Assembly (NCBI GenBank): GCA_943355005.1
Contig: CALRDV010000003.1
Location: 72,590 to 136,589, forward strand
Length of the DNA: 64,000 nucleotides
From: Patescibacteria group bacterium
Lineage (GTDB): Bacteria > Patescibacteriota > Microgenomatia > UBA1400 > MFAQ01
Direction: 5' to 3'
The notes beneath the pieces were generated by a model. It was given only the letters and a program-made list of their open reading frames with translations. It had not been told where the DNA came from and ran no database searches. A program made the position numbers and the translations under genes. Below, piece after piece: positions 4,203-42,614 of the stretch. Every line of letters begins with the position of its first letter. The stretch's first letter is position 1.

Positions 4203-4766
4203 ATGGTATTAGAACATGAGCTCATCCAACTATTAAGACAAAAGTTTGCCAAAGTAATCGAAGTGGTCGAGGAGGACTTTGCCACGGTCCGAGTGGGCAG
4301 AGCAAAACCAGAATTGGTTTCCGGAATTTCTGTGCCGGCATATGGCACATGGATGAAGCTGGTGGAAGTGGCGACAATCACGGCGCCGGACACCAATATG
4401 CTTATTGTGACGCCATTCGATAGAAGTTTGCTTGGAGCGGTCGAGAAGGCAATAAGTGATAGTGAGATGCAGCTTTCCGGAGTAGTAAATGGAGACTTAA
4501 TCCGTATCGTGATTCCGTCGCTGACACAAGAAAGAAGATTGGATTTTGTAAAACTACTCAAGCAGAAGACAGAGTCAGGGAAAATAATGCTAAGACAGGC
4601 TAGGCAGGATATTAAGGAGAAAATTGATGCTCTCAAGGAGATGAAAGAAGTATCTGAAGACGATATCTATATGCTTCTGGCCGACTTGGATAAAATTACG
4701 GGAGAGTTCAATGAGAAGATTGAGGAGATGAGTAGGAAAAAAGAAGATGAAGTGATGGCGGTTTAA
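4203..4766 (+). CDS. frr: Ribosome recycling factor.
   Basis: 187 aa with the RRF pattern (VRVGRAKPELVSGISVPAYG...IPSLTQERRLDFVKLLKQ). Confidence 0.9.
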   Translation: MVLEHELIQLLRQKFAKVIEVVEEDFATVRVGRAKPELVSGISVPAYGTWMKLVEVATITAPDTNMLIVTPFDRSLLGAVEKAISDSEMQLSGVVNGDLIRIVIPSLTQERRLDFVKLLKQKTESGKIMLRQARQDIKEKIDALKEMKEVSEDDIYMLLADLDKITGEFNEKIEEMSRKKEDEVMAV

Positions 4767-4777
4767 TTGTTTATTTT

Positions 4778-4808
4778 TCTGGATCCCGGATCAGGTCCGG
4801 GATGACAG
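4778..4808 (+). repeat. Hairpin repeat unit, type C (tctggatcccggatcaggtccgggatgaca).
   Basis: Member of the repeat family. Confidence 0.8.
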
Positions 4809-4813
4809 GCTTA

Positions 4814-5206
4814 TTAGTTGGAGAAGGCGAGTTTTTCTAGCTTGGTGACACGGTTTTTAGTAGTTTCGTGATCTTCTTTGAGTTCGTTTATAACCGAGAC
4901 TATGTTTTTGTTCATACCTTCCATTTGTTGTTGAAAATCTTTTAGTGTTTCTATAATTTCGATTTGTCCTTCTTTGAGCTCTTTTTGTCCTTCTTCTAAT
5001 TTGTATTGACCTTCTTTAAGTAGTGATAGTTGATTTTGAACATCGGTAAATCCAAATGCAGTTCGAGCTTCAGATTCGTCTAGATCTTCTTTGGTAGAGA
5101 GCTTTGAAACCTCGTTTGCCAGATCTTCTTTGGTAGCAAAGTTCTTCAAATCTTCTTTGGTGGCAAAAACATCTTTTAGTTTTTCGATGTCTTTATTGGT
5201 GATCAT
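4814..5206 (-). CDS. Hypothetical coiled-coil protein with three ATKEDLK repeats.
   Basis: 130 aa ORF. The nucleotide repeat atcttctttggtagc occurs three times. Confidence 0.55.
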   Translation of the reverse strand: MITNKDIEKLKDVFATKEDLKNFATKEDLANEVSKLSTKEDLDESEARTAFGFTDVQNQLSLLKEGQYKLEEGQKELKEGQIEIIETLKDFQQQMEGMNKNIVSVINELKEDHETTKNRVTKLEKLAFSN

Positions 5207-6370: not shown

Positions 6371-7108
6371 ATGACTATTAGTGAAGATGAACATGGATTT
6401 ACTGTCGAAAAAAGTGAAAAAGAGATACCCTTAAGTTCAATTCATGGGGAAGGTGTCAAAATCAAAGTTTACGAGATAACAAATAAACAGGTAGGCGGAG
6501 CAGATGCTAAAAGTCACATTGTGGGAAGATTTGTAAGTAAAGATGGTTTTGAGAGTAGTGAAAATATTCCTATGTTTGTAAAGCAGGCTAAGGTCAACGA
6601 AGAGTATTTTGGTGGTGAAAAAGAAGGTATGTCTGCAGCCGAAAGGTATTTTGAAAGATGGAAGTTTCTAAGAGATTTGGGGGTTCCTGTAGTTCCTAAT
6701 GTTGTGGTTTTAGATGGGGGGAGGGTTGCGATGACAAATCTAGGAATTAATGGTTCTGAATTTTTTGGAAAAGCATGGAGACATGGTCCAAAAGCAAACA
6801 GAAATTCAGGACGCCGAGAGCTATCAAAAGCCGAACAAGCTGTTTTGTCAATTAGTGATAAAAAGGTAATGTCTGAGATGGCAAGAATTAGGGACATTTT
6901 GGTCAAGGAAAAAATTCGTTTACCATATGACGATCCGTTTGATTTCTTAGTTCACCCAGATGGAAGCTTTGAAATCTTGGTCCATGATCCTGAAGCTTTG
7001 GAGTGGGGGGAATATGATAATTCAAAAAAAGACAAAGAAGATCCTCTTCTTTTAGAGCCTATACATCTAAGATTACTTAAAGAAGAGCTTGAAGATTTGA
7101 GTCTTTAG
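6371..7108 (+). CDS. Hypothetical protein, paralog A of a tandem pair.
   Basis: 245 aa. Shares ERYFERWKFLRDLGVP and DDPFDFLVHPDGSFEILV blocks with the ORF at 7330..8034. Confidence 0.6.
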   Translation: MTISEDEHGFTVEKSEKEIPLSSIHGEGVKIKVYEITNKQVGGADAKSHIVGRFVSKDGFESSENIPMFVKQAKVNEEYFGGEKEGMSAAERYFERWKFLRDLGVPVVPNVVVLDGGRVAMTNLGINGSEFFGKAWRHGPKANRNSGRRELSKAEQAVLSISDKKVMSEMARIRDILVKEKIRLPYDDPFDFLVHPDGSFEILVHDPEALEWGEYDNSKKDKEDPLLLEPIHLRLLKEELEDLSL

Positions 7109-7137
7109 ATTAAAATTTATAAATTGACAATCAGATG

Positions 7138-7245
7138 AAAGATTCGAATTGCTTGTTTTGCAAAATTGTTGCCGGGGAGGAGCCGTGTGAGAAGGTTTTG
7201 GAGAATGAAGGCTCCACGAATACTTTAGTTGTAACGCTAGTAACG
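7138..7245 (+). pseudogene. Truncated duplicate of the 5' end of the HIT gene (MKDSNCLFCKIVAGEEPCEKVLENE...).
   Basis: About 75 nt are nearly identical to 8043-8120. The downstream frame degenerates and stops quickly. Confidence 0.6.
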
Positions 7246-7329: not shown

Positions 7330-8034
7330 ATGCCTGTTGAAGTAGTTAGTGAAAGGGACATCTTGTATTTCCGGCGTCCTGCTGGGAAGATTGCAAGTCG
7401 CTTGGTGGTGGCTAGCTTGAATACGACCGAGACAGGAGGCTCAAGTGGCTTTAGCTCAGCTGAATTTAAGTACGGATATAAAGGTGGTCACCTGGCAGAA
7501 ATGGTGGTCAAAGATGCAGAAATTTTTAATAAAGAACTCTGTTTTGGACAGGAAAAAAAGTCAATGTGCATGGCAGATAGATATTATTATCGATGGTTAT
7601 ATCTAAAGGAGTTAGGCATTCCGACTGTGAGGACTATGAGAGTGGTAGACACCAATCGTATTATTATGGGTGACATGACGATTGATGGTAGTGAATTTAT
7701 GGGTAAAGGAAAGAATTATCTTTTAAGTTTAGAGAGTGCGGCAAAAAACAGACGTCAATTAACTTCTATGGAAAAAAGGTTCATTGAAATATATGAAAAT
7801 GGTGAGTTGGTGCAAGAAGTTTCTCGTGTTTGTGATCTCATGAACATACATTCTTTGGGGTTTCCGATGGACGATGAGTTTGATTTGTTAATTCATCCGG
7901 ATGGTTCGTTTGAAGTTTTAGTATTGGATTTGTCATATCTTAATAAGAAAGAAACCAATCACCCTGTAGATTACATAATGTCTACGGAGATGTGTTTGCA
8001 TCGTTTTTTGTTAGAAATTGGAATTAATGGTTAA
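7330..8034 (+). CDS. Hypothetical protein, paralog B of the tandem pair.
   Basis: 234 aa with conserved blocks DRYYYRWLYLKELGIP and DDEFDLLIHPDGSFEVLV. Confidence 0.6.
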   Translation: MPVEVVSERDILYFRRPAGKIASRLVVASLNTTETGGSSGFSSAEFKYGYKGGHLAEMVVKDAEIFNKELCFGQEKKSMCMADRYYYRWLYLKELGIPTVRTMRVVDTNRIIMGDMTIDGSEFMGKGKNYLLSLESAAKNRRQLTSMEKRFIEIYENGELVQEVSRVCDLMNIHSLGFPMDDEFDLLIHPDGSFEVLVLDLSYLNKKETNHPVDYIMSTEMCLHRFLLEIGING

Positions 8035-8042
8035 ATGAAGTA

Positions 8043-8390
8043 ATGAAAGATCCAAGTTGCTTGTTTTGCAAAATTGTGGCCGGGGAGGAGCCTTGTGAGA
8101 AGGTGTGGGAGAATGAGGAGTTCCTGGCTATCAAGAATAAGTATCCCATGGCTAAGGTGCATGTTTTGGTCATGCCTAAATCCCATATTAGAAAACAAGA
8201 GGTTGCTACTAGTCAAAGTGGGGAGTTTTGGGGTACAATTATGCCAGTCGTTTTTAGGGTAGTTTCTGAGCTAAAGCTCGAAAATTCTACCTACAAACTG
8301 GTTAATAACGGTATGGGATACGCCCATTTTGAGCACGAACATGTTCATATTTTAGGAGGATCCAAGACTGAGCCGGGTGGAGCGACTTAA
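8043..8390 (+). CDS. HIT family hydrolase.
   Basis: Histidine triad HFEHEHVHIL near the C-terminus and an N-terminal CLFCKI motif. Confidence 0.8.
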   Translation: MKDPSCLFCKIVAGEEPCEKVWENEEFLAIKNKYPMAKVHVLVMPKSHIRKQEVATSQSGEFWGTIMPVVFRVVSELKLENSTYKLVNNGMGYAHFEHEHVHILGGSKTEPGGAT

Positions 8391-9246: not shown

Positions 9247-9504
9247 ATGCTTGTAACTCCTGTAAAGAAGTCAAGGAAGACCAAAAAGTTTAAGCCTTTT
9301 AATGTGTATTGTGTTGTACATAAAGATTTTCGTGTTTCATCTCTGACAGATGTTCAGGTCGCACCTGGGACAGGACCGACAGGTGGAGGGTACGTACGGG
9401 CATTTGTAATTTGCCCAAAGTGCATCAAGGGCGCAGAGATCGCGAAGATAAATGTTCCAAGTGATTTGAGACTTGACCTGATAGAAATGAAGAAAGCCGA
9501 GTAG
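9247..9504 (+). CDS. Small Cys/His-containing protein, paralog 1 of a tandem trio.
   Basis: 85 aa. C-x2-H ... FVICPKC ... LDLIEMKKA resembles the ORF at 9896. Terminator at 9514-9543. Confidence 0.5.
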   Translation: MLVTPVKKSRKTKKFKPFNVYCVVHKDFRVSSLTDVQVAPGTGPTGGGYVRAFVICPKCIKGAEIAKINVPSDLRLDLIEMKKAE

Positions 9505-9626
9505 TTGTATTGAAGCGGTTGCTTATGTGACCGCTTTTTTTGTGGCTTGACAAGGGGTGTTTGATAGTGTAATATAGACACTATCGATGTAAGTTATCCC
9601 GGTACACTTAAATTAAGGAGTCTCAA

Positions 9627-9860
9627 ATGAGAACTTTTGAAATGGAATGCGACAACTGTTGCAAAATATTGACTGTAGATGGTGTAGATCAGATTATTAA
9701 GAAGTTCAAGAGAGGGTCAAAAGCCGGGGAAGTCGAGTATTTGGTGGAGTGTGATGTTTGCCATTGTCACACCAAAGTTCCAAATTGGACTTTATCTGAG
9801 GTTGAAAAGGCATTGAGGCCAATTCTGGTTTCTGAGTCGTTAGAAGCAGTCTTGGTATAA
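9627..9860 (+). CDS. Small Cys-rich protein (CDNCC ... CDVCHCH), middle member of the trio.
   Basis: 77 aa ORF downstream of a consensus-like promoter (TTGACA-17-TAATAT) that overlaps a palindrome. Confidence 0.5.
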   Translation: MRTFEMECDNCCKILTVDGVDQIIKKFKRGSKAGEVEYLVECDVCHCHTKVPNWTLSEVEKALRPILVSESLEAVLV

Positions 9861-9895
9861 TTTCCTGGTAAGTACATTTAATCGAGGAGGTAAAA

Positions 9896-10147
9896 ATGAC
9901 CGTAAAATCTTCAGACGACGCTAAAAAGGTAGTTTTTCCGATTGAGGTAATTTGTTGGAATCATGGAACAAAAGGAAAGAACCTAACGGTTACTGATTTT
10001 GTGGATGTTGAGTTTAAGGAGAGCTCTGATATGGACGCTGGGGCACCCTCTTTTACTTCAGTATTTGTAGTTTGTCCTTCCTGTGGTCTTCCTGCTTATT
10101 TTACTTATCCCTTGTCCGGGGAACTTCTTGATATGAAGGACGCTTAG
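9896..10147 (+). CDS. Small Cys/His-containing protein, paralog of the ORF at 9247.
   Basis: 83 aa with VICWNHG ... FVVCPSCG ... ELLDMKDA. GGAGG ribosome-binding site. Terminator at 10154-10181. Confidence 0.5.
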   Translation: MTVKSSDDAKKVVFPIEVICWNHGTKGKNLTVTDFVDVEFKESSDMDAGAPSFTSVFVVCPSCGLPAYFTYPLSGELLDMKDA

Positions 10148-10610: not shown

Positions 10611-10700
10611 CTGTCATTCTGAACTCGATTCAGAATCCAGAAATACCTGGATGTCCCTCACCAGATCGGGACTTTCAGCCCTATCAGGTCCGGCATGACA
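10611..10700 (+). repeat. Composite hairpin repeat: a type D unit (gtcattctgaactcgattcagaatcc) followed by a type C unit carrying an internal ~27-nt insertion.
   Basis: Same arrangement as 27746-27812. Confidence 0.8.
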
Positions 10701-10729: not shown

Positions 10730-11086
10730 TTGAGAGGAGAAGTTATGAAGCTTATTTTGGTTACTGATCTCAACAATGAAGAAATTGCCAGAAACATTGT
10801 ATATATGTTGGGCAAGAATGAATTCGATATTGTGACTGACTATTTTGACTCAAATGGTAAGTTTACGGATCGCAAGGTGATGAGGAAGAAAACTTTATCT
10901 CATATGGATCCCGGTTCGTTTACCATCAACAATGGGCTTACGCGAATTCCATTTTTGGGAAGTAGGGCCATAATTTGGGATTTAAAGTGTGAGCATGTGA
11001 CAGTTGATTTTCAGGGTGACGGTGTAATTTTTTTGAATAGAATTTTGAAGGATAACAAAACAATTTCCAGAACAATTCTTGTTTAG
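10730..11086 (+). CDS. Hypothetical protein.
   Basis: 118 aa ORF with a terminator-like hairpin at 11100-11125. Confidence 0.5.
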   Translation: MRGEVMKLILVTDLNNEEIARNIVYMLGKNEFDIVTDYFDSNGKFTDRKVMRKKTLSHMDPGSFTINNGLTRIPFLGSRAIIWDLKCEHVTVDFQGDGVIFLNRILKDNKTISRTILV

Positions 11087-11282
11087 TCCTCTATCCCTCA
11101 CATCCAGTGGGGGATTTTTTGTGCCTGATATTCGGATATTTTTCGTCTGTCTTATAGAAAATTTCAAGTGATAATTACTCAGGCACGGGTTTATAGAATG
11201 ACCCGCTGTAGCGGTTAAAGTAATGAAAATGAGCAAGTTTTATGCAGTTGACATCGAGTGTGAAAAGCCATAAGGTGTTAGT

Positions 11283-12836
11283 GTGAGTTTTTATCAAAAA
11301 TACCGTCCAAAGAAAATTGCGGAACTAGACTTGGCGTCTGTTCGTGATGTCCTACTTTCTACTCTTTCTTCCGGAAAGATTTCCCATGCATATTTGTTTG
11401 TTGGTCCCCGTGGTTCAGGAAAGACTAGTACGGCTCGAATCTTGGCTCAAATCGTTAACTGCGAAAAAAATCAAGGTAAATCAAAAGATTTTGCCGAACC
11501 ATGTACTGAGTGTGAAGCCTGCCAAGTCATCAGTAGGGGGAGTAGTGTAGATGTCATCGAGATTGATGCGGCCAGTAATGGACTAGTAGATGATATTCGG
11601 GAACTGCGGGACAGAGTTAGACTTTCGCCTGTCCAGCTGAAGAAAAAGGTCTACATAATTGATGAGGTCCACATGGTATCCACAGCGGGCTTCAACGCTC
11701 TTTTGAAGACACTTGAAGAGCCCCCCGCACATGCTTTGTTCATTCTCTGTACTACGGAATCTCAAAAAGTTCCCGAGACTATAGTGAGTCGTTGCGCCAG
11801 GGTAAATTTTACAAAAGCTACTATTGATGAAGTGGTTGGCTCTCTGATGAAAGCAGTTAAAGGAGAGAAGATTAGTATCGAAGATGAGATTTTAAGGGAG
11901 ATTGCTGAGGCAACGGATGGTAGTTTTCGTGAAGGGCATAAAATTCTAGAACAAATTTCTTCCTATGGTTCCAAAATAGATGAAGTGGTGTTAGCTAAAG
12001 TGCTGGGGGTAGTAGGTAGACATTCGGTAGTTAAACTTTTGGAAGCAGTTAATTCTGGGGACACAGGAGTAATCACAAAGATGTTTGATGAGATGGAAAA
12101 AACCGGTGTTAAAGCGTCGTTGCTTAGCTCTTCACTTCTTACGGCTGCTAAACTCGAAATGGAAAATAAATTGAAGATTGGAGAAAGTCCGTCGAAGTAT
12201 CTAAAGATGATTGACAGTTTGATTACGGCTTCCGATAGAATAAAAATTTCACCTTTGCCAATGCTACCTCTAGAAATTGCACTACTAGCACTAGCACTTG
12301 AAGATGGTGGAGGAGGGATCCGCCCAAAAGTCCAAACGCCTGCCCCGGATCCGGAAATCCGCCAAGATTCCATGGTTAAAGCCAGTGTAGAAAGCTTGAT
12401 AAAGAAAGAAGAAACTCCTGTGATGGATATTATTAGTACTCATGTGGCCACTTCAAATACTACACCAGATTCTCTTGTAAATATTGAAAGTGTAAAGACC
12501 GGGTGGGTCGATTTTCTGAATCATATGTCCGTGAGTAATGGTTCACTGGCCGGTATGTTGCGATTGGTTTCACCTGTTGATGTGCAAGGAAAATCATTAA
12601 CGATTTCCGTTACTTCCAGATTTCATTTGGATATGTTGGAGAGAGATGTAAAGAGAAAACTCATCGAGGAGCAGATGGCCAAAGTTTGGGGTCCGATGAC
12701 TTTTAAATGTATCCTGACGGATAAGGTGATAAGGACGGAACCTCTAGTAGAAGATGCTAATGTTTCTGAGCCGAAGGACGAAGTTCTGAACGCTACCGGC
12801 AGTGTTATGTCTGCCGCGGAGAAGATTTTTGGGTAA
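11283..12836 (+). CDS. dnaX: DNA polymerase III subunit gamma/tau.
   Basis: YQKYRPKKIAEL...GPRGSGKTSTARILAQ Walker A and a CTECEACQ zinc module. GTG start. Confidence 0.9.
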   Translation: MSFYQKYRPKKIAELDLASVRDVLLSTLSSGKISHAYLFVGPRGSGKTSTARILAQIVNCEKNQGKSKDFAEPCTECEACQVISRGSSVDVIEIDAASNGLVDDIRELRDRVRLSPVQLKKKVYIIDEVHMVSTAGFNALLKTLEEPPAHALFILCTTESQKVPETIVSRCARVNFTKATIDEVVGSLMKAVKGEKISIEDEILREIAEATDGSFREGHKILEQISSYGSKIDEVVLAKVLGVVGRHSVVKLLEAVNSGDTGVITKMFDEMEKTGVKASLLSSSLLTAAKLEMENKLKIGESPSKYLKMIDSLITASDRIKISPLPMLPLEIALLALALEDGGGGIRPKVQTPAPDPEIRQDSMVKASVESLIKKEETPVMDIISTHVATSNTTPDSLVNIESVKTGWVDFLNHMSVSNGSLAGMLRLVSPVDVQGKSLTISVTSRFHLDMLERDVKRKLIEEQMAKVWGPMTFKCILTDKVIRTEPLVEDANVSEPKDEVLNATGSVMSAAEKIFG

Positions 12837-12888
12837 TGATGGTGAGGTTTGATATACAATAGGAGATGTTAGAAATTACGAAATAAAC

Positions 12889-13182
12889 ATGTTTAACGGA
12901 ATAAAACAATTTGGCGCTCAGGGTGCTGCTCTTACCAAACTAGCCTTACTTCAGAGGAAGATTGCCGGTCACAAGACCGAGATTGAAGATGGAGACGTCA
13001 GGGCTGTAGTTACGGGAGACGGTAAGCTTAAAGAACTCTACGTGGGTGGTGAGAATATGAATCAAGCCGTAAAAGTCATTAATGAAGCTATCACCAAGGC
13101 TCAAAAATACGCCGCCGAGGAAATGAAGGATTCGATGGGAGACTTGTCTAAGGTATTAGGCAATCTACCGAAAGGGGCTTAG
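12889..13182 (+). CDS. ybaB: Nucleoid-associated protein YbaB/EbfC.
   Basis: 97 aa immediately downstream of dnaX, with a YbaB-like pattern (GGENMNQAVKVINEAITKAQ). Confidence 0.85.
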   Translation: MFNGIKQFGAQGAALTKLALLQRKIAGHKTEIEDGDVRAVVTGDGKLKELYVGGENMNQAVKVINEAITKAQKYAAEEMKDSMGDLSKVLGNLPKGA

Positions 13183-13183
13183 A

Positions 13184-13639
13184 ATGGCGGACACAGAAAA
13201 GATGAGTGAATTAGAGCTAATTGCTTTAAATGAAAGTTTGCAAAAATCTTTGGACCTGTGGAATACTGAGTATCAATATAACAAGGTAGTAGGGAGAAAA
13301 CATTTTGAAATAAAGCATGATGCCAGAAATCATTTTATTGATATTGTTAAAACTCATTTAGAATCTAAACAAAACGTTTTAGATTTAAATTTAGAAATAA
13401 TGGAGAGTAGTGTTAATGAAAAAGAGTTAGTAGGGTTTCTTGAAAAAGTAACTCCAGAGCCAGGGTTTCACATAATCAATGTAAAAAGCCTCGATGAAGG
13501 CGAAAAATCCAAAACTTTACCTAAAATTCTTTTCCCATTAGCTGATACGGATGTGATGTGGGTATCAGGGACAGGAAACAAAGCGTTTATGATAAGACCT
13601 GATGATATTGTTTCGATAAAATTTACGATGCCGTCCTAG
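13184..13639 (+). CDS. Hypothetical protein inserted between ybaB and recR.
   Basis: 151 aa. It starts 2 nt after the ybaB stop, so translational coupling is likely. AT-rich. Confidence 0.55.
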   Translation: MADTEKMSELELIALNESLQKSLDLWNTEYQYNKVVGRKHFEIKHDARNHFIDIVKTHLESKQNVLDLNLEIMESSVNEKELVGFLEKVTPEPGFHIINVKSLDEGEKSKTLPKILFPLADTDVMWVSGTGNKAFMIRPDDIVSIKFTMPS

Positions 13640-13652
13640 CACGAACAATTCA

Positions 13653-15341
13653 ATGGAAATTATTTATGACGAGGTTGATGATGGGCTATCGGTAGAAGAT
13701 TTGCGTGAGAAATATTTTAATCTTGAGTTTTCCAACTTTTACGAACATAGTCATTCATTATTAAATAATTCTAATCGAATTGAGAATTTTTTGTGGCGTG
13801 AACCATTGAGAAAAATGAATTTAGATTTTATAAACAGAGCCGGAATCCTAATTTTGAGTGCGGAAGAAGATAAAAATGTCAATTTTTCAGTCTACAGAAG
13901 TTTATTGGCAAATTGGTTGAAAAAATCAAGTGAAGTAATGTCGACCGGATATGAGCCGAATCAATTATTTGCAAAAATTTTAAATGATGGGTTAAATAGG
14001 TATAGAAAATTTCTTGAAATAGAAAATGATCAAAATTTAAAAAAAGATATAACTTTTCTAGAATCCTCAGGTAGTATTGTTAGAGAACTTTCTAATCTCT
14101 CAAACACAACCGGTTTAGAATCGATAATTGGTGACAATTTAGAATATTTTGCTTGTGGTAAAAACGTGGAGGATCGGACGGCTTATTTTAATAACTTGGG
14201 GCTGATGGCTGACCACGACTTGGAGTTAGAAATATTGACAAAGATTGTTGCAAATCTAAACGTAGATGATTCCATAGATTTGTCTCAGACATTTTCCGTA
14301 GAAGGGGTTTCCGAAATTAATCACGCGGATTTAAACCGTAAGCAAGACGAAATCGATGTACCTCTAAAAATTTGCTATGTTTTAGCTCATGCAAAAGAAA
14401 ATAATAAAGTGGAAGAGTTTATTAAGGTATTTAAGGGATATTGTGACAGGCGTTCGTCTGTCGGTTATAGTACTTCAATTGAAGATGGACTAGTTTATAG
14501 ATTAATTGAAAGTAATATATTTTCTAAATATTCCCTGAGCGAGAATCTGGCAGATTGGTTATTTAAAGCTAAAGTAGAAAAAGTTAAAGTTGATTATTCG
14601 GAGAACAGAGCCTTTTGGAATGAAATTGCAGGTGAAACTCACTTGGACGAGGTTTGTGAAAGAATGTCCAAAATGGATCCTGAGCGAAGAATGGACTTAT
14701 TAAAAAAATGGCTACCGGACGAAGATGAATTTGTTCACAAGTTTATAGCTCAGTTAATGAATTCCGGGGTTCATAGTAGTTTAGATGAGAAGAAGGAATG
14801 GAGTGTGTGGATCGATTTACTGGATAAAAATATTGAAGTTCTTATCCAGTCCAAAAAATTGAAAGAAATCTGGGAGAGTATTGGTGCTTCACCCCAAACT
14901 CTTCTATATCAACTTGGCTTTTGGTTAGCAAATTTTCCTGTACAAAGTTTGAAAAACGTAGGTACTGAACAGCTGGATTTAATTGAAGGTGTATCACTTG
15001 GTGGATGGCGGTCTAAACTTTGTGGAAATGCTGAAATTTACTTTATTGAGGCGTTTAGTTTAAACAAAATTACTTCCTTTTATGATGGTGCTTTGCTGTA
15101 CAAAGGTTTGGGAGAAGGGGCAGCTATTTGTACTAGAGATTTTGTGGTTGAGTCAGACACGGGACGAAAAAGTATTTTTAAACGTGGTTGTTATTACGTT
15201 CCGGTATATGGTACGAGTACAAACAACTGGTCTCTTGCAAGACCTCCGGGTGGAGATGAACTACCTAGAACTTCTCAAGATTTAATGCGATTAGCTGATA
15301 GATGGAATGAAAATCATCCCGAAGTAAAACAGCAAGTTTAA
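13653..15341 (+). CDS. Large hypothetical protein (562 aa) with no recognisable motif.
   Basis: Long uninterrupted ORF that is AT-rich compared with its flanks. Confidence 0.6.
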   Translation: MEIIYDEVDDGLSVEDLREKYFNLEFSNFYEHSHSLLNNSNRIENFLWREPLRKMNLDFINRAGILILSAEEDKNVNFSVYRSLLANWLKKSSEVMSTGYEPNQLFAKILNDGLNRYRKFLEIENDQNLKKDITFLESSGSIVRELSNLSNTTGLESIIGDNLEYFACGKNVEDRTAYFNNLGLMADHDLELEILTKIVANLNVDDSIDLSQTFSVEGVSEINHADLNRKQDEIDVPLKICYVLAHAKENNKVEEFIKVFKGYCDRRSSVGYSTSIEDGLVYRLIESNIFSKYSLSENLADWLFKAKVEKVKVDYSENRAFWNEIAGETHLDEVCERMSKMDPERRMDLLKKWLPDEDEFVHKFIAQLMNSGVHSSLDEKKEWSVWIDLLDKNIEVLIQSKKLKEIWESIGASPQTLLYQLGFWLANFPVQSLKNVGTEQLDLIEGVSLGGWRSKLCGNAEIYFIEAFSLNKITSFYDGALLYKGLGEGAAICTRDFVVESDTGRKSIFKRGCYYVPVYGTSTNNWSLARPPGGDELPRTSQDLMRLADRWNENHPEVKQQV

Positions 15342-15357
15342 GATAGAATTATAGATT

Positions 15358-15966
15358 ATGAGAAGTATCCGCCCTGTTCAGAAAGTTATAGATGCGTTTG
15401 AGTCTTTGCCCGGTATTGGGCCCAAGTCGGCGGCTAGACTGGCATATTATTTATTGAATGTGCCACAGGATAAATTATCTCGTTTTGCACAGGCATTGGA
15501 GAATCTTAAGAAGGATACCAAGCTTTGTGCTTTGTGTTTTAACGTTGGTGAGGAGGAGTTTTGTCCTGTGTGTCAAGAAGAAGCAAGAGATAAAAGTTTG
15601 GTTTGTGTGGTAGAAACATCCTTGGATTTGTTGGCTTTTGAGAGAGCGGATGGATTTAAAGGTGTTTATCATGTCCTTGGTGGCTCAGTAAATCCTTTGG
15701 CCGGTATTGGTCCAAATGATTTAAGAATTCCTCAGCTGATGGCGAGACTGAAAATTGGAGAAATAAAGGAGTTGATAATTGCGACAAATCCAAACATGGA
15801 AGGGGAAGCGACGGCGATGTTTATCATTGAACGGATGAAGGAACTTGGACTGAAAGATATTGTTAGAGTGACTAGGATTGGTAGGGGTCTGCCGACGGGA
15901 GCTGATATCGAGTATGCGGACGGACAAACTCTCACCAGAGCCTTGGAAGGTCGAGGAGAGATGTAG
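15358..15966 (+). CDS. recR: Recombination protein RecR.
   Basis: C4 zinc finger CALC...CPVC and a Toprim-like C-terminal region. Conserved dnaX-ybaB-recR context. Confidence 0.9.
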   Translation: MRSIRPVQKVIDAFESLPGIGPKSAARLAYYLLNVPQDKLSRFAQALENLKKDTKLCALCFNVGEEEFCPVCQEEARDKSLVCVVETSLDLLAFERADGFKGVYHVLGGSVNPLAGIGPNDLRIPQLMARLKIGEIKELIIATNPNMEGEATAMFIIERMKELGLKDIVRVTRIGRGLPTGADIEYADGQTLTRALEGRGEM

Positions 15967-16048
15967 TCTAGTGTTGATGCTTGACGCGCAGTTTACCTCA
16001 TGATATTATAGGGTGACCGTTATTTCACAAGTTAATTGGAGGTGTTAG

Positions 16049-19039: not shown

Positions 19040-19507
19040 ATGAACAGATTCCAGGTAGATGATTTGGAAATATTGTCAAAGTTGGCTTTGAATGGAAATG
19101 AAAACAGTCGAGAGGTTTGCGTTTCCTATTGGTCTGGAGTACTAACGGCTCTATATATTGCAAGGGAATATGCCCGGGCTCATGTCGACGCTCCAAGATG
19201 GGCTTTTTGGAAACTGGTTTTCGGAAAAATCTCTCCTGTACCTTCCAGGGCTGCTTTCCTAAATCTACTGGAAGAGTACACAAACGACGAGTTTTTCTTT
19301 CCTGGAGATATGATTATAAACAATGACTCCAGAATAGGTGTGTTTGGCGAATATTATTATAAGGGTATGGCTGATGCTATTGAGGTGGGTATTAGACAAG
19401 CACCAAAAGTATTTGAGTTAGTTTCGTCAAAAAGTACAGAGGATTTGAGGGATTGGCTTATGTCGAAGATTAGCTGGGCTAGACAAAACCTGGAAAAGTA
19501 TTTGTGA
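19040..19507 (+). CDS. Hypothetical protein.
   Basis: 155 aa ORF. Terminator at 19515-19542 (gcgacccgccacggcgggtcgc followed by T5). Confidence 0.5.
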   Translation: MNRFQVDDLEILSKLALNGNENSREVCVSYWSGVLTALYIAREYARAHVDAPRWAFWKLVFGKISPVPSRAAFLNLLEEYTNDEFFFPGDMIINNDSRIGVFGEYYYKGMADAIEVGIRQAPKVFELVSSKSTEDLRDWLMSKISWARQNLEKYL

Positions 19508-20535: not shown

Positions 20536-20904
20536 ATGGCAGATCAAAAAAGTTTGTTGCATACGGTGAATGAAATATTATCTGGTCACTTGACGGCGTT
20601 CGATGACATGTATATAGCAGGTACTTTAGCCGCTCTAGTATTGGTTCGCCACATGATCAGCAGTGGAATTGGTTTAAACTATTTCCACAATATACTGGCC
20701 TTTTACCCCTCGGGGAAAAAAGATTACAACAGGGGTTTAGTCGATAGTTTCGAAAGTCTGTACAAATGCTGGAAAGAGGCTTACGGAGTTGGTGGAAATA
20801 GACTAGCAACCAACAAGGTTCTTGAAATAATCGATCAAGTCGAGAAAAGAATTGAGACCGGTTCTTTAGATATTTCACAAGGTACCAAAAAGGGTACGAG
20901 ATAA
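20536..20904 (+). CDS. Hypothetical protein, member 1 of a four-gene paralog cassette.
   Basis: 122 aa. Shares the C-terminal motif Y-x2-G-[LVIM]-x2-[SG]-F-x3-[YFV]-x2-[YWF]. Its RBS and start ggaggaataaatggcag is identical to that of the next gene. Confidence 0.55.
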   Translation: MADQKSLLHTVNEILSGHLTAFDDMYIAGTLAALVLVRHMISSGIGLNYFHNILAFYPSGKKDYNRGLVDSFESLYKCWKEAYGVGGNRLATNKVLEIIDQVEKRIETGSLDISQGTKKGTR

Positions 20905-20923
20905 ACAATGTGTGGAGGAATAA

Positions 20924-21379
20924 ATGGCAGCAAAAAGGCTTGAAGACTTTTGGTTACTGAAGTTTAAATTAGAAGTGAAAGCTTCGAAAGAGGCTACTTT
21001 GAGTGATTATTCTGGCGGAATTCATTATGGGATCTTGACCGGACTGAAAATTGCATCTGTGATGGTTGCTAATAAATTAGTTTCTGATCAAGATGTGTAC
21101 TGTATTTTGGTTAGTAATAACGTAACAATCGAGCAAATTATTGCGGCCTTGAATAACATGCATGCCTCAAGAGGTGTGGTTTACGAAACCAGATACATTT
21201 TGCATAACTTTTCGGGAAAGCCAGGAAAGAAATACTACGATGCTGGGGTTGAACTCGGGTTTAACTATGTCTTCGACATGTACCAAGCTTATATTGATGC
21301 TGGGGCAACATCTGAAGGTGCCAAAAATGTTGTGAAGTTTCGTATTAATCAGCTTCATCGTGAAGTTCTATATTCTTAA
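20924..21379 (+). CDS. Hypothetical protein, paralog 2.
   Basis: 151 aa. Motif YDAGVELGFNYVFDMY. N-terminal similarity to the ORF at 21936. Confidence 0.55.
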   Translation: MAAKRLEDFWLLKFKLEVKASKEATLSDYSGGIHYGILTGLKIASVMVANKLVSDQDVYCILVSNNVTIEQIIAALNNMHASRGVVYETRYILHNFSGKPGKKYYDAGVELGFNYVFDMYQAYIDAGATSEGAKNVVKFRINQLHREVLYS

Positions 21380-21851
21380 GTTTGGAGGAAGAATTATGAT
21401 TCCGTCACTTGAAACAGAACTGGATGTATTTATCGCCACACATGACTCATCTGAAATTCGAGCATATAAGGATGGATTAAAAACGGGGTTGAATTTATTT
21501 GAGAGTTTAATTCAGAAGGGTTTGAGACATATGCCTAAAGAGTTATGGCATTTCCTCATGGAAAAGAGAATTAAGCGTCTCAGTTTTGGAGACTTGATGA
21601 TTGGAGTACAAACTGAATCGGGGATGTCGACCAATCCGGCCTTGTATATAAATCAAGACGATTACCTTTGTAAAGGAACCATGCACCAGTCCTACCTACA
21701 AGGTATGGTAGACAGTTTTTATGCTGCCTATGTCGTGTTTGAAGGAACCCACCTCCAAGTAGATGCAAAATCTGATGTTTGGGTGGAAGCAGAGAGACTG
21801 ACAGCAAAATTTCTTTACCGCTTAAGGACCTATATCGAAGAGGCCCAGTAA
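21360..21851 (+). CDS. Hypothetical protein, paralog 3.
   Basis: 163 aa. Motif YLQGMVDSFYAAYVVF. Followed by the terminator gtccccgccaatggcggggcttttt. Confidence 0.55.
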   Translation: MKFYILKFGGRIMIPSLETELDVFIATHDSSEIRAYKDGLKTGLNLFESLIQKGLRHMPKELWHFLMEKRIKRLSFGDLMIGVQTESGMSTNPALYINQDDYLCKGTMHQSYLQGMVDSFYAAYVVFEGTHLQVDAKSDVWVEAERLTAKFLYRLRTYIEEAQ

Positions 21852-21852
21852 A

Positions 21853-21882
21853 TATTGTCCCCGCCAATGGCGGGGCTTTTTT
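21853..21882 (+). terminator. Rho-independent terminator.
   Basis: gtccccgccaatggcggggc followed by tttttt. An identical hairpin recurs at 22403. Confidence 0.7.
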
Positions 21883-21935
21883 GTGATTGTGATAAACTTG
21901 GCGGGAAATTACCTTGATAATTAATTGGAGGTCAA

Positions 21936-22394
21936 ATGGATAAGGTTTTTGACGATTTTCTGGTCTCGGTGAAATTAAAGTTGATTGAGATGCAACAATC
22001 CCACTTTTTTATTGGAGCAATCGAGAGCGTACAGTTCGGAACTGTTACCGGGCTAATCTTGGGAAAAGCTTGGATCGCCGGATTGAAACCGGTAACCTTT
22101 AACGATTACCACTGGTTAGTTCTTGGTTATTTATCTGAACCGAGAGATGAAATTGAGGTTTGTCTGGAAAAAGCGAACGAGTATATGCTGCCGGACCATA
22201 AATTTACCAAAGATATGTACGAAGGGAGCGGAGGAAGAAAGGTGTTTTTTAAGGAATATCAGCAAGGGATTAGAAATGGTTTCCTCTACGCAGTTGATCT
22301 ATTTAATCTTTACAATGAGAGACTTGCAAAAGATGCTCTTAAGTTTGCGACCGATCACTTGGATTGTGTAATTTCTGCTTTAAAAGACTTTTAA
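21936..22394 (+). CDS. Hypothetical protein, paralog 4.
   Basis: 152 aa. Motif YQQGIRNGFLYAVDLF. Followed by the same terminator. Confidence 0.55.
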   Translation: MDKVFDDFLVSVKLKLIEMQQSHFFIGAIESVQFGTVTGLILGKAWIAGLKPVTFNDYHWLVLGYLSEPRDEIEVCLEKANEYMLPDHKFTKDMYEGSGGRKVFFKEYQQGIRNGFLYAVDLFNLYNERLAKDALKFATDHLDCVISALKDF

Positions 22395-24997: not shown

Positions 24998-26590
24998 TCA
25001 AGACTCCCGGTAGTGGCAGCCGATGGATTTTGGGTTCGCATAAGCAGCTTTAGCCACGATTAGGGAGACTAAGACCATGTTTCTGAGGCCTAATAATTCA
25101 TCTGACAGGGTGGCTTCCCGATAGAACTTGTTGATGGTGTTCTCCATTTGTGACAGATCCGAGATGGCTCTTTCGAGAAGTGGGGTTTTTCGAACCAATC
25201 CGACCATGTTCCACATGATGTTTTTTACCGTGTTTGCATCGGCGGACATGAGGGCGCTGTCAGCGGGGAATTTTTTGAAGTAGTTCCAAGAGGGGACGTC
25301 TGAGGAGTTTATTTTTATAGATTCCCGATCAGGTCGGGAATGACAAAATGTATTGGTAATGGATTTGGCGGCGCGGGAGCCAAACACGAGACCTTCCAGA
25401 AGGGAGGTGCTAGCCAGACGATTGCCACCGTGTAACCCCGTGCAAGAGATTTCGCCCACAGCATAAAGATTTTTTATGGATGATTTGCCAACGAGGTCTG
25501 TCAAAATTCCACCGCACATATAATGAGCGGCCGGAGAAACAGGGATGAGGTTTGTCGTAATATCTATTCCATATTTGAGACAGCTTTCATGAATCATGGG
25601 AAAATGTTTCAATATTTCTTCTTTGGAAATATAAGACTTTAAGTCCAGATATACATTTGAAGCTCCTGTCTCCAGCATTTCGGTAAAGATAGCTCTCGAG
25701 ACCTTGTCGCGGGTGGTAAGGTCTGGTTTGTCCAATTCCGGATAGTATTTTTGCATAAAAGGAATACCTTGTGAATTTGTTAGACGCGCACCTTCTCCGC
25801 GGACTGCCTCACTAATAAGGAATGGTGGAGCTCCGGTAATTTTTAAAGCGGTTGGGTGAAATTGTTCGTATTCCATATTTAGTAGCTTTGCTCCGGCACG
25901 ATAAGCCATAGCGATGCCATCTCCTCTAGCTCCTTTGGGGTTCGTAGTAAATGCAAAGATTTGGCCGTTACCACCGCTGGCTAGAATAGTAGTTTTTGCC
26001 AAAATTCTGGAAATAATGCCGTCTGCTTGATCGAAGGCGTATACCCCAACACAAGTATCGGTGCCATATTTATTCAACCAGTTATTGGTTTGGTGACCGG
26101 TAGTTATTAAGTCGACCGCAGTTAGATGATCAAAAATAGTAACGTTGCTTAATTTTTTTAAAGATTCGGTGAGATGTTCTTGAATGGATCTACCCGTAAA
26201 ATCAGAAACTTTAGCGACTCGTGGTTCTTTGTGGCCGCCCTCAAGAGCATAGGATAAATTTCCGTCTTTCTCCTTGTCAAAGGGAACGTTTGCGATTTCC
26301 AGTAATATTTTGTCTACTAAGGCAGGTCCTTCGTCAGCTAAGATTTGAGCGGCTTCAGGAAGTCCAATTCCATCGGCTGATTTTAGGATATCTTCGACTA
26401 GGTCCGGGCCACCTTTGGCAATGATGCCACCTTGGGCATAATTGGTATTTGATTCGTTTGGAGTTTCGGCTCTGGTTAATATTATTATTTTGATGGTCGG
26501 ATCCTGTTTGCTAATTTCGATAGCGGCAGTTGCTCCTGCAATGCCGGTGCCAATGATGAGTATGTCTGCTGTGAGGAGTTCTTGTTTCAT
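24998..26590 (-). CDS. nadB: L-aspartate oxidase.
   Basis: 530 aa with the FAD-binding N-terminus DILIIGTGIAGATAA. In an operon with nadA and nadC. Contains an in-frame type A repeat at 25316-25345. Confidence 0.9.
   Translation of the reverse strand: MKQELLTADILIIGTGIAGATAAIEISKQDPTIKIIILTRAETPNESNTNYAQGGIIAKGGPDLVEDILKSADGIGLPEAAQILADEGPALVDKILLEIANVPFDKEKDGNLSYALEGGHKEPRVAKVSDFTGRSIQEHLTESLKKLSNVTIFDHLTAVDLITTGHQTNNWLNKYGTDTCVGVYAFDQADGIISRILAKTTILASGGNGQIFAFTTNPKGARGDGIAMAYRAGAKLLNMEYEQFHPTALKITGAPPFLISEAVRGEGARLTNSQGIPFMQKYYPELDKPDLTTRDKVSRAIFTEMLETGASNVYLDLKSYISKEEILKHFPMIHESCLKYGIDITTNLIPVSPAAHYMCGGILTDLVGKSSIKNLYAVGEISCTGLHGGNRLASTSLLEGLVFGSRAAKSITNTFCHSRPDRESIKINSSDVPSWNYFKKFPADSALMSADANTVKNIMWNMVGLVRKTPLLERAISDLSQMENTINKFYREATLSDELLGLRNMVLVSLIVAKAAYANPKSIGCHYRES
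25316..25345 (+). repeat. Type A hairpin repeat (tatagattcccgatcaggtcgggaatgaca) inside the nadB coding sequence.
   Basis: Identical 30-mer to those at 1898 and 36182. Translated in nadB as TFCHSRPDRESIKI. Confidence 0.85.
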
Positions 26591-26591
26591 A

Positions 26592-27752
26592 TTATTTAAT
26601 GGCGATCATACGGCGAATTGGTAATTCTGCTTTGGCTCTGAGACCTTCTGGGACGGTGATTTCATACTGCATGTTTTCCAAAGCTTCAATAACTGTTTCC
26701 AGATTGTTTTGGGCCATGTGGGGACATCTTTTCTGGATAGAGCAAACTTGTAAAACGTTCTTGTGTTTGGCAGCCAGCATTTCGACCATGGCGCACTCTG
26801 TAAAGAAGGCAACTGGTCTATCTTGGACATCTTGTTTCTCTATATTTTTAATCATCTCACCGGTGGAGCCGGCAAAATCTACTTCAGCGATAACTTCTGG
26901 TGGGCATTCAGGGTGAGCCATGATGTAGACACCGGGAAAATCTTTCCTAAGTTCAATCGCGTCTTTTGGGGTGAATTTCTCATGAACTTCGCATTTTCCT
27001 TCCCAGGCGATGAAGAGGATATTGGGAGAACCTTTGTGGAGTGAGATTGCCACGTCGCGCTGCTCCTCGCAATGACGGATGTTTGATTCTGCTGAAGCGG
27101 ACGTGTCGGGGAAAAATATATCGGCACCCATATCTCGAGCGACATTTTGGGCTAAGAATTTATCGGGTAGAAAGATGACTGTATTTGTTTTCCACTCTTT
27201 GAGTGCCCACTCGACAACCTTTCGAGCATTGCCGGAAGCACAGCAGACATCAACTTCAGATTTGGTATCGGCATCTGTGTTTACATAGGCGACCACGGGA
27301 ACTCCGGGGAACATAGCTTTCAATTTGCGGACATCCGCTCCGGTAATACTGGAAGCAAGTGAACATCCAGCTTTCAGAGAAGGTATGAGCACTGTTTTGG
27401 TAGGGTTCAGTACTTTGGCGGTTTCTGCCATAAATTTGACTCCGAGAAATAAAATGAGATCTGCATCGGTTTCCGTTGCTTTACGGGATAATTCTAATGA
27501 ATCTCCGCGTATGCCTAAGACTTCGTCGCACTGCAAGTCCCAGGACATATAGTTGTGCTTTAGAATGACGGCTTTCTTTTCTCTCACTAGGCGATTGAGT
27601 TTTTCTACCTGACCGGCTTTGATCCATAGTTCGAAATCTGGACTGTAACCGGAATATTTTTCTTTGAAGAGGTCAAAAATTTCTTGTTGGGATAGGAGTG
27701 TAGTATTGTTAGTCATTATATTTTTATATTTGTATTTATTATCTTTTGTCAT
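26592..27752 (-). CDS. nadA: Quinolinate synthase.
   Basis: NadA pattern (ILKHNY ... GDSLELSRKATETDADLILFLGVKFMAETAKVLNP ... GCSLA). Contains an in-frame type E repeat at 27036-27071. Confidence 0.9.
   Translation of the reverse strand: MTKDNKYKYKNIMTNNTTLLSQQEIFDLFKEKYSGYSPDFELWIKAGQVEKLNRLVREKKAVILKHNYMSWDLQCDEVLGIRGDSLELSRKATETDADLILFLGVKFMAETAKVLNPTKTVLIPSLKAGCSLASSITGADVRKLKAMFPGVPVVAYVNTDADTKSEVDVCCASGNARKVVEWALKEWKTNTVIFLPDKFLAQNVARDMGADIFFPDTSASAESNIRHCEEQRDVAISLHKGSPNILFIAWEGKCEVHEKFTPKDAIELRKDFPGVYIMAHPECPPEVIAEVDFAGSTGEMIKNIEKQDVQDRPVAFFTECAMVEMLAAKHKNVLQVCSIQKRCPHMAQNNLETVIEALENMQYEITVPEGLRAKAELPIRRMIAIK
27036..27071 (+). repeat. Type E hairpin repeat (gagattgccacgtcgcgctgctcctcgcaatgacgg) inside the nadA coding sequence.
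   Basis: Translated in nadA as SNIRHCEEQRDVAIS. Homologous to the units at 1046 and 5227. Confidence 0.8.
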
Positions 27753-27812
27753 TCTGAACTTGATTCAGAATCCAGGATTTTCTGGATGCCGGATCGGGTC
27801 CGGCATGACAGA
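27746..27812 (+). repeat. Composite hairpin repeat (type D followed by type C) between nadA and nadC.
   Basis: tgtcattctgaacttgattcagaatccagg ... tctggatgccggatcgggtccggcatgaca. Confidence 0.8.
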
Positions 27813-36135: not shown

Positions 36136-36211
36136 TGTCATCCTCGCGAATGCGGGGATCCAGATTTATTGTACTCATTTGTATAGATTCCCGATCAGGT
36201 CGGGAATGACA
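36136..36211 (+). repeat. Composite hairpin repeat: reverse type F unit followed by a type A unit.
   Basis: tgtcatcctcgcgaatgcggggatccag ... tatagattcccgatcaggtcgggaatgaca. Confidence 0.8.
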
Positions 36212-37980: not shown

Positions 37981-38046
37981 ATGTCATGCCGGACCTGATC
38001 CGACATCCAGGCTTTTCTGGATTCCGGGTCGTAGCCCGGAATGACA
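37981..38046 (+). repeat. Composite hairpin repeat: reverse type C unit followed by a type B unit.
   Basis: gtcatgccggacctgatccgacatccag ... tctggattccgggtcgtagcccggaatgaca. Confidence 0.8.
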
Positions 38047-42531: not shown

Positions 42532-42614
42532 GCCGGGATGGCGGAATGGTATACGCTCAAGTCTCAAAAACTTGTGGTCGCAAGGCCGTGAGGGTTCGAC
42601 TCCCTCTCCCGGCA
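42532..42614 (+). tRNA. tRNA-Leu (anticodon CAA), type II with a long variable arm.
   Basis: Folded by hand. Acceptor GCCGGGA/TCCCGGC, anticodon stem CAAGT/ACTTG with loop CTCAAAA, T-arm GAGGG-TTCGACT-CCCTC. CCA is not encoded. A terminator lies at 42625-42652. Confidence 0.85.

Follow-up and report, generated by a model that had tools for sequence, protein, structure and literature searches.

Hotspots in which accessory genes are flanked by conserved core genes are a general concept of bacterial genome organisation. In the canonical dnaX-ybaB-recR operon of Escherichia coli, the ybaB stop codon overlaps the recR start codon and recR is translationally coupled to ybaB (PMC9610160). We analysed the corresponding operon in a 64,000-nucleotide stretch from a Patescibacteria group bacterium (GenBank assembly GCA_943355005.1, contig CALRDV010000003.1, positions 72,590 to 136,589; hereafter the window, whose coordinates are used unless another locus is named), in which two open reading frames (ORFs) of 151 and 562 amino acids (aa), here called S and L, lie between ybaB and recR. 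As in E. coli, the three anchor genes keep their order and orientation and the spacing 3' of ybaB is very tight; unlike in E. coli, it is S that directly follows ybaB, and recR stands 2.2 kb further on, past L. We think it probable, with some reserve, that S and L are independent, dispensable genes of one Candidatus Collierbacteria subclade, occupying a variable ybaB-recR slot of an otherwise conserved operon.

The genes run dnaX, ybaB, S, L, recR, all on the + strand and tightly spaced in the ORF list of the window:

11283..12836, + strand: dnaX (clamp-loader tau/gamma), left anchor and first gene of the operon; Pfam DNA_pol3_delta2 (PF13177), 3.8e-42
12889..13182, + strand: ybaB/ebfC, nucleoid-associated protein, highly conserved anchor; PF02575, 26.0 bits against a cutoff of 25.5
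13184..13639, + strand: S, acidic soluble orphan protein of 151 aa; ORF call
13653..15341, + strand: L, very acidic soluble orphan protein of 562 aa; ORF call
14829..15338, + strand: C-terminal ~170 aa of L, signature domain of the L family; 10-sequence alignment A6
15358..15966, + strand: recR, right anchor; Pfam Toprim_4, RecR_HhH and RecR_C

The anchors are readily assigned. YbaB/EbfC is identified by a PF02575 match above the gathering score, by its place between dnaX and recR and by its protein cluster, which its sources name YbaB or nucleoid-associated protein; RecR has PF21176, PF13662 and PF21175 above their cutoffs and PF02132 just under its own. Identity to relatives is 47-83% for DnaX (29 related loci), 76-96% for YbaB (28 species loci) and 74-93% for RecR. 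The ybaB stop codon, TAG, occupies 13180-13182 and is followed by a single spacer base and the S ATG at 13184; the spacers from S to L and from L to recR are 13 and 16 nt. A first-pass annotation, made from the sequence alone, had placed the two ORFs between ybaB and recR with exact coordinates and sizes.

Variable occupation of the ybaB-recR junction

A YbaB scan of GTDB species representatives gave 28 loci; where their records are informative, most are named Candidatus Collierbacteria or other Microgenomates, with other labels on a number of MAGs (loci are cited below by L numbers, such as L002, and homologous proteins by P numbers). The clusters that hold YbaB and RecR of the window bear these names too. 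recR begins 9-19 nt after ybaB in 17 of the 27 loci that hold both genes, and it comes straight after ybaB in all 10 contigs of a close population (L036-L045) whose RecR shares a 90%-identity cluster with that of the window. Direct succession of ybaB and recR, which the first-pass annotation took to be the normal arrangement, is thus found both in E. coli (PMC9610160) and in the majority of these genomes, and because of these counts S and L are accessory in the lineage. Synteny across relatives finds the pair variable, with most relatives lacking both genes.

The edges of the variable segment are sharp. DNA of the window is ~76% identical to that of L002, its closest relative, over a stretch that starts at 11205 and stops exactly with ybaB, whose stop codon ends at 13182. 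Similarity is back at 15357, a single base ahead of the recR ATG; the segment is therefore precisely bounded by ybaB and recR.

S and L also occur apart. S without L (ybaB-S-recR) is found in L002, L015, L007 and L016, while L001 has the order dnaX-L-ybaB-S, in which ybaB separates the two. S is not present in L030, which runs dnaX, two minus-strand ORFs, a 79-aa ORF, a 599-aa ORF, ybaB, L and recR, with L beginning at the base right after the ybaB stop. Outside the operon, L lies between a class II aminoacyl-tRNA synthetase gene and thrS in L031, L032 and L034, a cluster whose sources are Collierbacteria GW2011_GWC2_43_12 and GW2011_GWB1_44_6; in the latter genome S and L are on different contigs, and its operon (L007) has S, not L. 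At L033, a 606-aa distant relative of L (P0007), preceded by an abutting 94-aa ORF, stands amid glycolytic, CTP-synthase and ribosomal-protein genes. A scan of JGI metagenomes returned one locus, a duplicate of L032. Because they are found apart in several genomes, S and L are independent units and not a pair. The cargo module proposed in the first-pass annotation was therefore apt in that the genes are accessory and variable, and that genes in the slot bear signs of horizontal exchange among Collierbacteria (see below); it was wrong about a two-gene module.

Coding status, composition and residence

By our own arithmetic from base composition, an open frame of 562 codons in DNA of ~35% GC has a chance probability of ~1e-21; given this figure for L and protein-level homologues of both ORFs in other genomes, S and L are real genes. 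Their AT-richness, described as marked in the first-pass annotation, is real but moderate: GC content is 0.333 for S (z = -2.3) and 0.348 for L (z = -1.9), with GC at third codon positions (GC3) of 0.29 and 0.28, against a mean GC of 0.411 (standard deviation 0.034) and a GC3 of 0.40 for the 75 ORFs of the window. These are the two lowest GC values among the 75, with a few other ORFs near L (0.348-0.359, z of about -1.9 to -1.55).

Low GC could be taken as a mark of foreign origin, a notion that we rejected since both genes bear the host-specific GC skew. Collierbacteria have a very strong genome-wide excess of G over C on one strand (PMC7143001), and the + strand of the window, which carries most of the genes, has positive GC skew throughout (~0.1-0.35). 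The skew of S (0.237) and that of L (0.267) compare with 0.238 +/- 0.066 for 48 + strand genes. With skew at the host mean, both genes have therefore long resided, in this orientation, in genomes under such a mutational regime, and they are no recent arrivals from foreign DNA. The GC of S- and L-type genes falls 0.02-0.07 below that of their own locus in every genome examined, and other fast-evolving ORFs of the window are AT-shifted as well; from this recurrence we infer that the low GC reflects weak or relaxed constraint under AT-biased mutation, not import from another phylum.

The S and L protein families

The S family has six members of 151-175 aa (window, L001, L002, L015, L007 and L016), all on the + strand and directly 3' of ybaB, usually after a spacer of 1-8 nt; in L016 the start of the ORF overlaps the end of ybaB. 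Homology is carried by bridging BLASTP E-values of 1e-30 to 1e-4 and by length and motifs conserved across the six genomes (alignment A5). Pairwise identity is 22-38%, or 51% for L007-L016, whereas concatenated DnaX, YbaB and RecR of the same genomes are 76-87% identical. A word-indexed search of 5.8 billion proteins returned for S only its self-match. The protein has an isoelectric point (pI) of 5.2, with no signal peptide and no hydrophobic segment compatible with a transmembrane helix.

L has a tiny family too. An exhaustive HMMER search with a profile of the window protein and P0002 found seven proteins among 1.84 billion cluster representatives, and the word-indexed search of 5.8 billion proteins returned L itself and one homologue, or the query only when a 10-sequence L profile was used. 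Homologues are 31-43% identical and align collinearly over their full length, with conserved motifs, in more than five lineages. L is strongly acidic (net charge -26, pI 4.9) and likewise has neither a signal peptide nor a transmembrane-compatible hydrophobic segment.

A conserved C-terminal domain of ~150 aa joins L to a family of 599-aa proteins (alignment A6, 10 sequences). The nearly invariant positions (L numbering) are P429, D442, L456, C457, K484, G487, C493, F509, G512, Y515, W526 and R530. L-type proteins carry motifs of roughly the form YQLGxWLAxFPV, LCGxAE, AALCTxDF, FKRGxYYxP and WxxARP, while the 599-aa and other distant members retain only C457, C493, D442, K484, Y515, W526 and R530. 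A hidden Markov model built without the 599-aa family still finds its proteins at ~2e-17. The domain is also present in a 259-aa protein (P0008 in L046), whose contig has no match to the remainder of the L profile.

The 599-aa family of Collierbacteria, accompanied by an upstream partner of 79-89 aa, lies between dnaX and ybaB in L014, L016 and L030. It resembles L in the C-terminal domain, in overall collinearity, in taking a slot of the same operon and in having a small, tightly coupled ORF before it; it differs in being only ~15% identical to L, in having the GC content of its host, in a small partner unrelated to S and in using the dnaX-ybaB slot. L and the 599-aa protein are both present in L030 and are therefore paralogues, not alleles.

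Positions 134-781 and 843-1388(-) of L047, a 1.9-kb contig, cover a truncated fragment of the L family (P0006) beside a gene with a PRiA4_ORF3 domain. The fragment matches only the middle of the profile and is possibly a copy in decay within a mobile-element setting.

Probable exchange of genes between conserved flanks

Unrelated minus-strand ORFs, 92-201 aa long, are further occupants of the dnaX-ybaB and ybaB-recR slots in other genomes. Among these is a recurrent family of ~92-107 aa, found in either slot, in which BLASTP links only L030 (102-aa copy), L041 and L027; members in L011, L017 and L036 were added by eye from shared N- and C-terminal motifs ('M.v....F..k' at the N terminus and '..V.i.L.' at the end):

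L030 6915-7522, minus strand: two tandem copies of the ~100-aa family (BLASTP, from the 102-aa copy)
L041 4198-4506, minus strand: ~100-aa family (BLASTP)
L027 2521-2823, minus strand: ~100-aa family (BLASTP)
L011 8329-8607, minus strand: ~100-aa family, further member (by eye)
L017 7525-7848, minus strand: ~100-aa family, further member (by eye)
L036 3185-3463, minus strand: ~100-aa family, further member (by eye)

The operon has also received a 1.1-kb insertion sequence (IS) encoding a 350-aa rve-family transposase, which lies between dnaX and ybaB in L036 (3543-4658), in L038 and L043 and probably in L044, where the upstream ORF is cut off and unannotated. It is missing from L037, L039, L040, L042 and L045, and the contigs are otherwise 99.4-99.7% identical.

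Two observations point to exchange of genes within the slots. First, identity among S proteins is incongruent with the host tree: S of the window and of L002, which are sister genomes, are 22% identical at 87% housekeeping identity, and those of the distantly related L007 and L016 are 51% identical at 76%. Second, the module formed by an 89-aa ORF and the 599-aa gene differs between L014 and L016 by a synonymous divergence (dS) of only 0.19-0.36, with a ratio of nonsynonymous to synonymous divergence (dN/dS) of 0.13-0.18 and DNA identity of 87-97%, compared with dS >2 for the flanking ybaB and recR, saturation for dnaX and DNA identity of 75-82% across these flanks. The tract of elevated identity covers the module and continues into the start of ybaB. 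A module ~10 times younger than its flanks indicates recent recombination, and with a dN/dS of 0.13 the 599-aa paralogue is under purifying selection. Taken together, the 89+599 module and the incongruence of S support cassette-like replacement, probably by homologous recombination through the conserved flanks.

The same pair of loci has further patches of 90-97% identity at 1576-2024 and 12177-12926 (L014 coordinates), set in a background of 75-82%. With such patches elsewhere, mosaic recombination between L014 and L016 is general and not specific to the module, and these patches suggest that it is frequent in the lineage.

The slots are like chromosomal accessory-gene hotspots in that fixed pairs of conserved core genes bracket differing content, here unrelated ORFs and an IS, which appears to be exchanged via the flanks. 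They are unlike them in holding one to three genes inside a housekeeping operon, in the lack of an integrase, tRNA or att repeats and in a content of seemingly promoterless, co-oriented orphans that cannot be recognised as cargo of mobile elements or of defence.

As for expression, a terminator-like hairpin lies 5' of dnaX (11093-11115) and a promoter-like site 3' of recR (15981-16009), and scans of the + strand found no terminator-like hairpin at any gene junction from dnaX to recR, the sole matches being minimal stems of 5-6 pairs within dnaX and recR. These uninterrupted junctions make co-transcription of S and L with dnaX and ybaB plausible. The first-pass annotation had called it almost certain, a degree of confidence that spacing and consensus scans do not carry. 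On the explanation that we favour, S and L would have no promoter of their own and would depend for expression on read-through from the dnaX/ybaB transcript together with translational coupling; they would be kept as weakly constrained accessory genes that are often lost, and would be swapped among Collierbacteria lineages by homologous recombination via the conserved flanking genes.

Searches for function and for known element classes

Neither S nor L has a match in Pfam, NCBIfam, PHROGs or PADLOC, and sequence and profile searches of the PDB returned nothing, in keeping with the first-pass statement that the ORFs lack recognisable motifs. Scans of each member of both family alignments against Pfam gave nothing consistent, and in particular no enzymatic, nuclease, ATPase, toxin or DNA-binding domain was recognised in either family in Pfam or NCBIfam. 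Membership in known anti-phage defence systems was likewise not found, with 0 PADLOC-DB v2 families at E <= 1 when S and L were searched along with two orphan neighbours. Relatives of S and L were absent from phage and plasmid records (tblastn) and from IMG/VR viral contigs (four scans). The addiction, defence or DNA-metabolism role put forward in the first-pass annotation thus gains nothing from family matches, from phage, plasmid or IMG/VR relatives or from toxin- or nuclease-like domains.

Structure prediction gave a coarse picture of L. An AlphaFold2 model of the full-length protein from a two-sequence alignment is helical over about the first 430 aa, then beta-rich, with helices at the end, at a mean predicted confidence (pLDDT) of only 43; a model of the C-terminal domain from six sequences reached 41, and both values are far too low to rely on. 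Foldseek comparison of the low-confidence full-length model with the PDB returned helical-repeat proteins only, with TM-scores <=0.24 and none at E <= 0.001. L resembles the HEAT/ARM alpha-solenoid proteins in its N-terminal ~430 aa, predicted to be all-helical, and in that its insignificant similarities, in structure and in Pfam, lie with helical-repeat proteins alone. It is a resemblance and no more, with one sub-threshold HEAT_2 match (E 0.036) in one family member (P0004) and a model of low confidence. In these models L looks like a helical scaffold with a ~150-aa beta-rich C-terminal domain bearing two nearly invariant cysteines. We speculate, with low confidence, that both are dispensable proteins of the cytoplasm that bind other proteins or act as adaptors at the periphery of replication and repair.

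Several origins and element classes were rejected. Profile comparison with hhalign found S unrelated to YbaB, to L and to the 79-89-aa partners of the 599-aa family, and L unrelated to DnaX, which argues against duplication origins; the 94-aa gene before P0007 has no significant relation to the 79-89-aa partners and no Pfam match to YbaB. A toxin-antitoxin or addiction module does not fit two genes that occur apart, one of them encoding 562 aa, with no Pfam, PADLOC or NCBIfam match. Nor does an integron cassette, given spacers of 1, 13 and 16 nt, no attC site, no meaningful direct or inverted repeats at the boundaries and no integrase at the locus. An integrative element, prophage or genomic island was set aside, there being no flanking repeats, PHROG matches or phage, plasmid or IMG/VR relatives; the only tRNA of the window is at 42532, and the rve IS seen in the neighbouring slot of another population is absent here. 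No direct repeat of at least 40 nt involves L anywhere in the 64-kb window, and no pairs resembling template and variable repeats occur within 12.8-16.1 kb, unlike what a diversity-generating retroelement target would have.

A free-standing homing endonuclease would carry a recognisable nuclease domain; Pfam detected no nuclease family in any of 10 family members.

Alternative explanations

Some points weigh against the reading of S and L as independent, dispensable slot genes. The incongruence of S was judged against a neighbour-joining host tree of three proteins without support values, and recombination is evidenced by S and the paralogous 599 module, not by L itself; co-transcription was read from spacing and consensus scans. 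Both models of L have pLDDT values of ~41-43, and the fold search made with one of them was uninformative. A functional link to YbaB is possible for S, which follows ybaB in six of six cases, and for L, since three of five independently found L-type genes (window, L001 and L030) lie in the dnaX-recR operon.

A YbaB-linked role is accordingly the main rival: S and/or L might assist the nucleoid, replication or recombination machinery as lineage-specific accessory factors, partnering YbaB, DnaX or RecR and co-expressed with them for stoichiometry. Besides the constant place of S after ybaB, this would account for the start of L in L030 at the base after the ybaB stop, for the recurrence of L-type and 599-type genes in the dnaX-ybaB and ybaB-recR slots and for the company of acidic S and L with a basic DNA-binding YbaB (pI 8.9), and it would place S in the position that E. 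coli uses for translational coupling of recR to ybaB (PMC9610160). We nevertheless hold it to be unlikely. Across the same genomes YbaB is 76-100% conserved, as opposed to 22-38% for S and 31-43% for L, which is unusual for an obligate partner, and most Collierbacteria with near-identical YbaB and RecR have neither gene. L is also found between aminoacyl-tRNA synthetase genes, and P0007 in a neighbourhood of glycolytic, CTP-synthase and ribosomal-protein genes, while hhalign relates neither S nor L to YbaB or DnaX. The linkage of S to ybaB is, moreover, partly an ascertainment effect, because four of the six S loci were retrieved through YbaB.

Somewhat more doubtful is a bolder reading in which S, L, the 599-aa and the ~100-aa minus-strand families would together form an unrecognised class of promoterless cassettes that colonise dnaX-ybaB-recR of Collierbacteria and move via the ybaB and recR flanks, serving strain-specific conflict or host-interaction functions or modulating YbaB. 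Were it true, the cysteine-containing C-terminal domain of L would be a new functional domain.

Patchy presence among close relatives, very fast divergence, an S phylogeny incongruent with the host tree, GC below the surroundings in every genome and a slot that also receives an IS are all features that a conflict module in an essential operon could have, whether for anti-phage defence, counter-defence or toxin-antitoxin addiction. Such a module is improbable here: no member of the families matches PADLOC, PHROG, Pfam or NCBIfam, and no ATPase, nuclease, HEPN, TIR or other toxin domain is recognisable in Pfam or NCBIfam. S and L are not obligately linked, a 562-aa L is unlike a toxin-antitoxin component, phage, plasmid and IMG/VR relatives are missing, no defence genes adjoin and the 599 paralogue is under ordinary purifying selection (dN/dS 0.13).

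We regard as very unlikely that L-type genes are free-standing selfish ORFs, similar to homing endonucleases, which insert precisely between genes and spread by break-induced gene conversion. Insertion is indeed precisely intergenic and free of flanking repeats, presence varies among close lineages, several different intergenic slots are occupied, and the L014/L016 tract of elevated identity runs from the 89+599 module into the ybaB start; yet GIY-YIG, HNH, LAGLIDADG, PD-(D/E)XK and other nuclease families were not detected, the invariant and nearly invariant columns of the conserved domain include no histidine, other tracts of >90% identity in L014/L016 are unrelated to the module, and copies only 31-43% identical argue against recent spread. 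Least credible of all is that S and/or L are non-functional, decaying or spurious frames, as low GC, the lack of known domains, the very low AlphaFold2 confidence and the truncated fragments of P0006/L047 might suggest, since chance cannot plausibly explain 562 open codons in AT-rich DNA, the L family keeps motifs and a collinear alignment in more than five lineages, the S family keeps length and motifs in six genomes and the paralogous family has a dN/dS of 0.13.

Orphan genes across the wider window

Insertions of this kind are not peculiar to the operon. About half of the 30 ORFs in window positions 3-24 kb have no homologue, or only 22-40% identical ones, in 46 related loci; housekeeping genes of 57-97% identity stand between them. 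S and L belong to these orphan or fast-evolving ORFs; the others are:

4814-5206, minus strand: orphan or fast-evolving ORF
6371-7108: orphan or fast-evolving ORF
7330-8034: orphan or fast-evolving ORF
9247-10147: three orphan or fast-evolving ORFs
10730-11086: orphan or fast-evolving ORF of 118 aa
16049-16588: orphan or fast-evolving ORF
19040-19507: orphan or fast-evolving ORF
20536-22394: orphan or fast-evolving region

Within what is a genome-wide mosaic, the insertion of S and L stands out most.

Some of these ORFs and their surroundings have features of their own. The 118-aa ORF keeps its place between ybeY and dnaX in 12 relatives at an identity of 27-37% (33% to L002) and occurs in two tandem copies in the L036 population. 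The three successive ORFs of 77-85 aa at 9247-9504, 9627-9860 and 9896-10147 carry CxxC pairs, resemble zinc ribbons and are without homologues in the 46 related loci; the first and third seem related when compared by eye. Between two fast-evolving ORFs, 7135-7208 is a 74-nt, 91% identical copy of the 5' end (8043-8116) of a HIT-family gene (8043-8390) that begins ~900 nt further on, and it looks like the remnant of a partial duplication. ORF 776-1885 contains three tandem repeats of 63 nt (21 aa) at 824-1012.

Interspersed intergenic hairpin repeats, similar to repetitive extragenic palindromes or miniature inverted-repeat transposable elements, were found at the following positions, with one copy separating ybeY from the orphan ORF that lies 5' of dnaX:

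1878-1927, 4758-4807, 25296-25345 and 36162-36211: intergenic hairpin repeats
10612-10661, 27747-27796 and 37982-38031: further intergenic hairpin repeats

One form reads '...GATTCCCGATCAGGTCGGGAATGACA'; a second, 'TGTCATTCTGAACTTGATTCAGAATCCAG...', appears to be its oppositely oriented relative.

Implications

The case is an instance of a common pattern in the candidate phyla radiation (CPR), in which lineage-specific hypothetical genes lie among core genes; it calls for no new mechanism, and S and L have the appearance of ordinary dispensable, lineage-specific genes and not of a recognisable defence or addiction module. Two uncharacterised families are defined, S and L/599, the latter with a C-terminal domain of ~150 aa that is absent from Pfam, and they are possible structural-genomics targets in the 'dark matter' of CPR genomes. 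The ybaB-recR junction, widely conserved and translationally coupled in many bacteria, can evidently be opened, and in this ultra-small CPR genome it appears to have become a landing slot for orphan genes with fast turnover.

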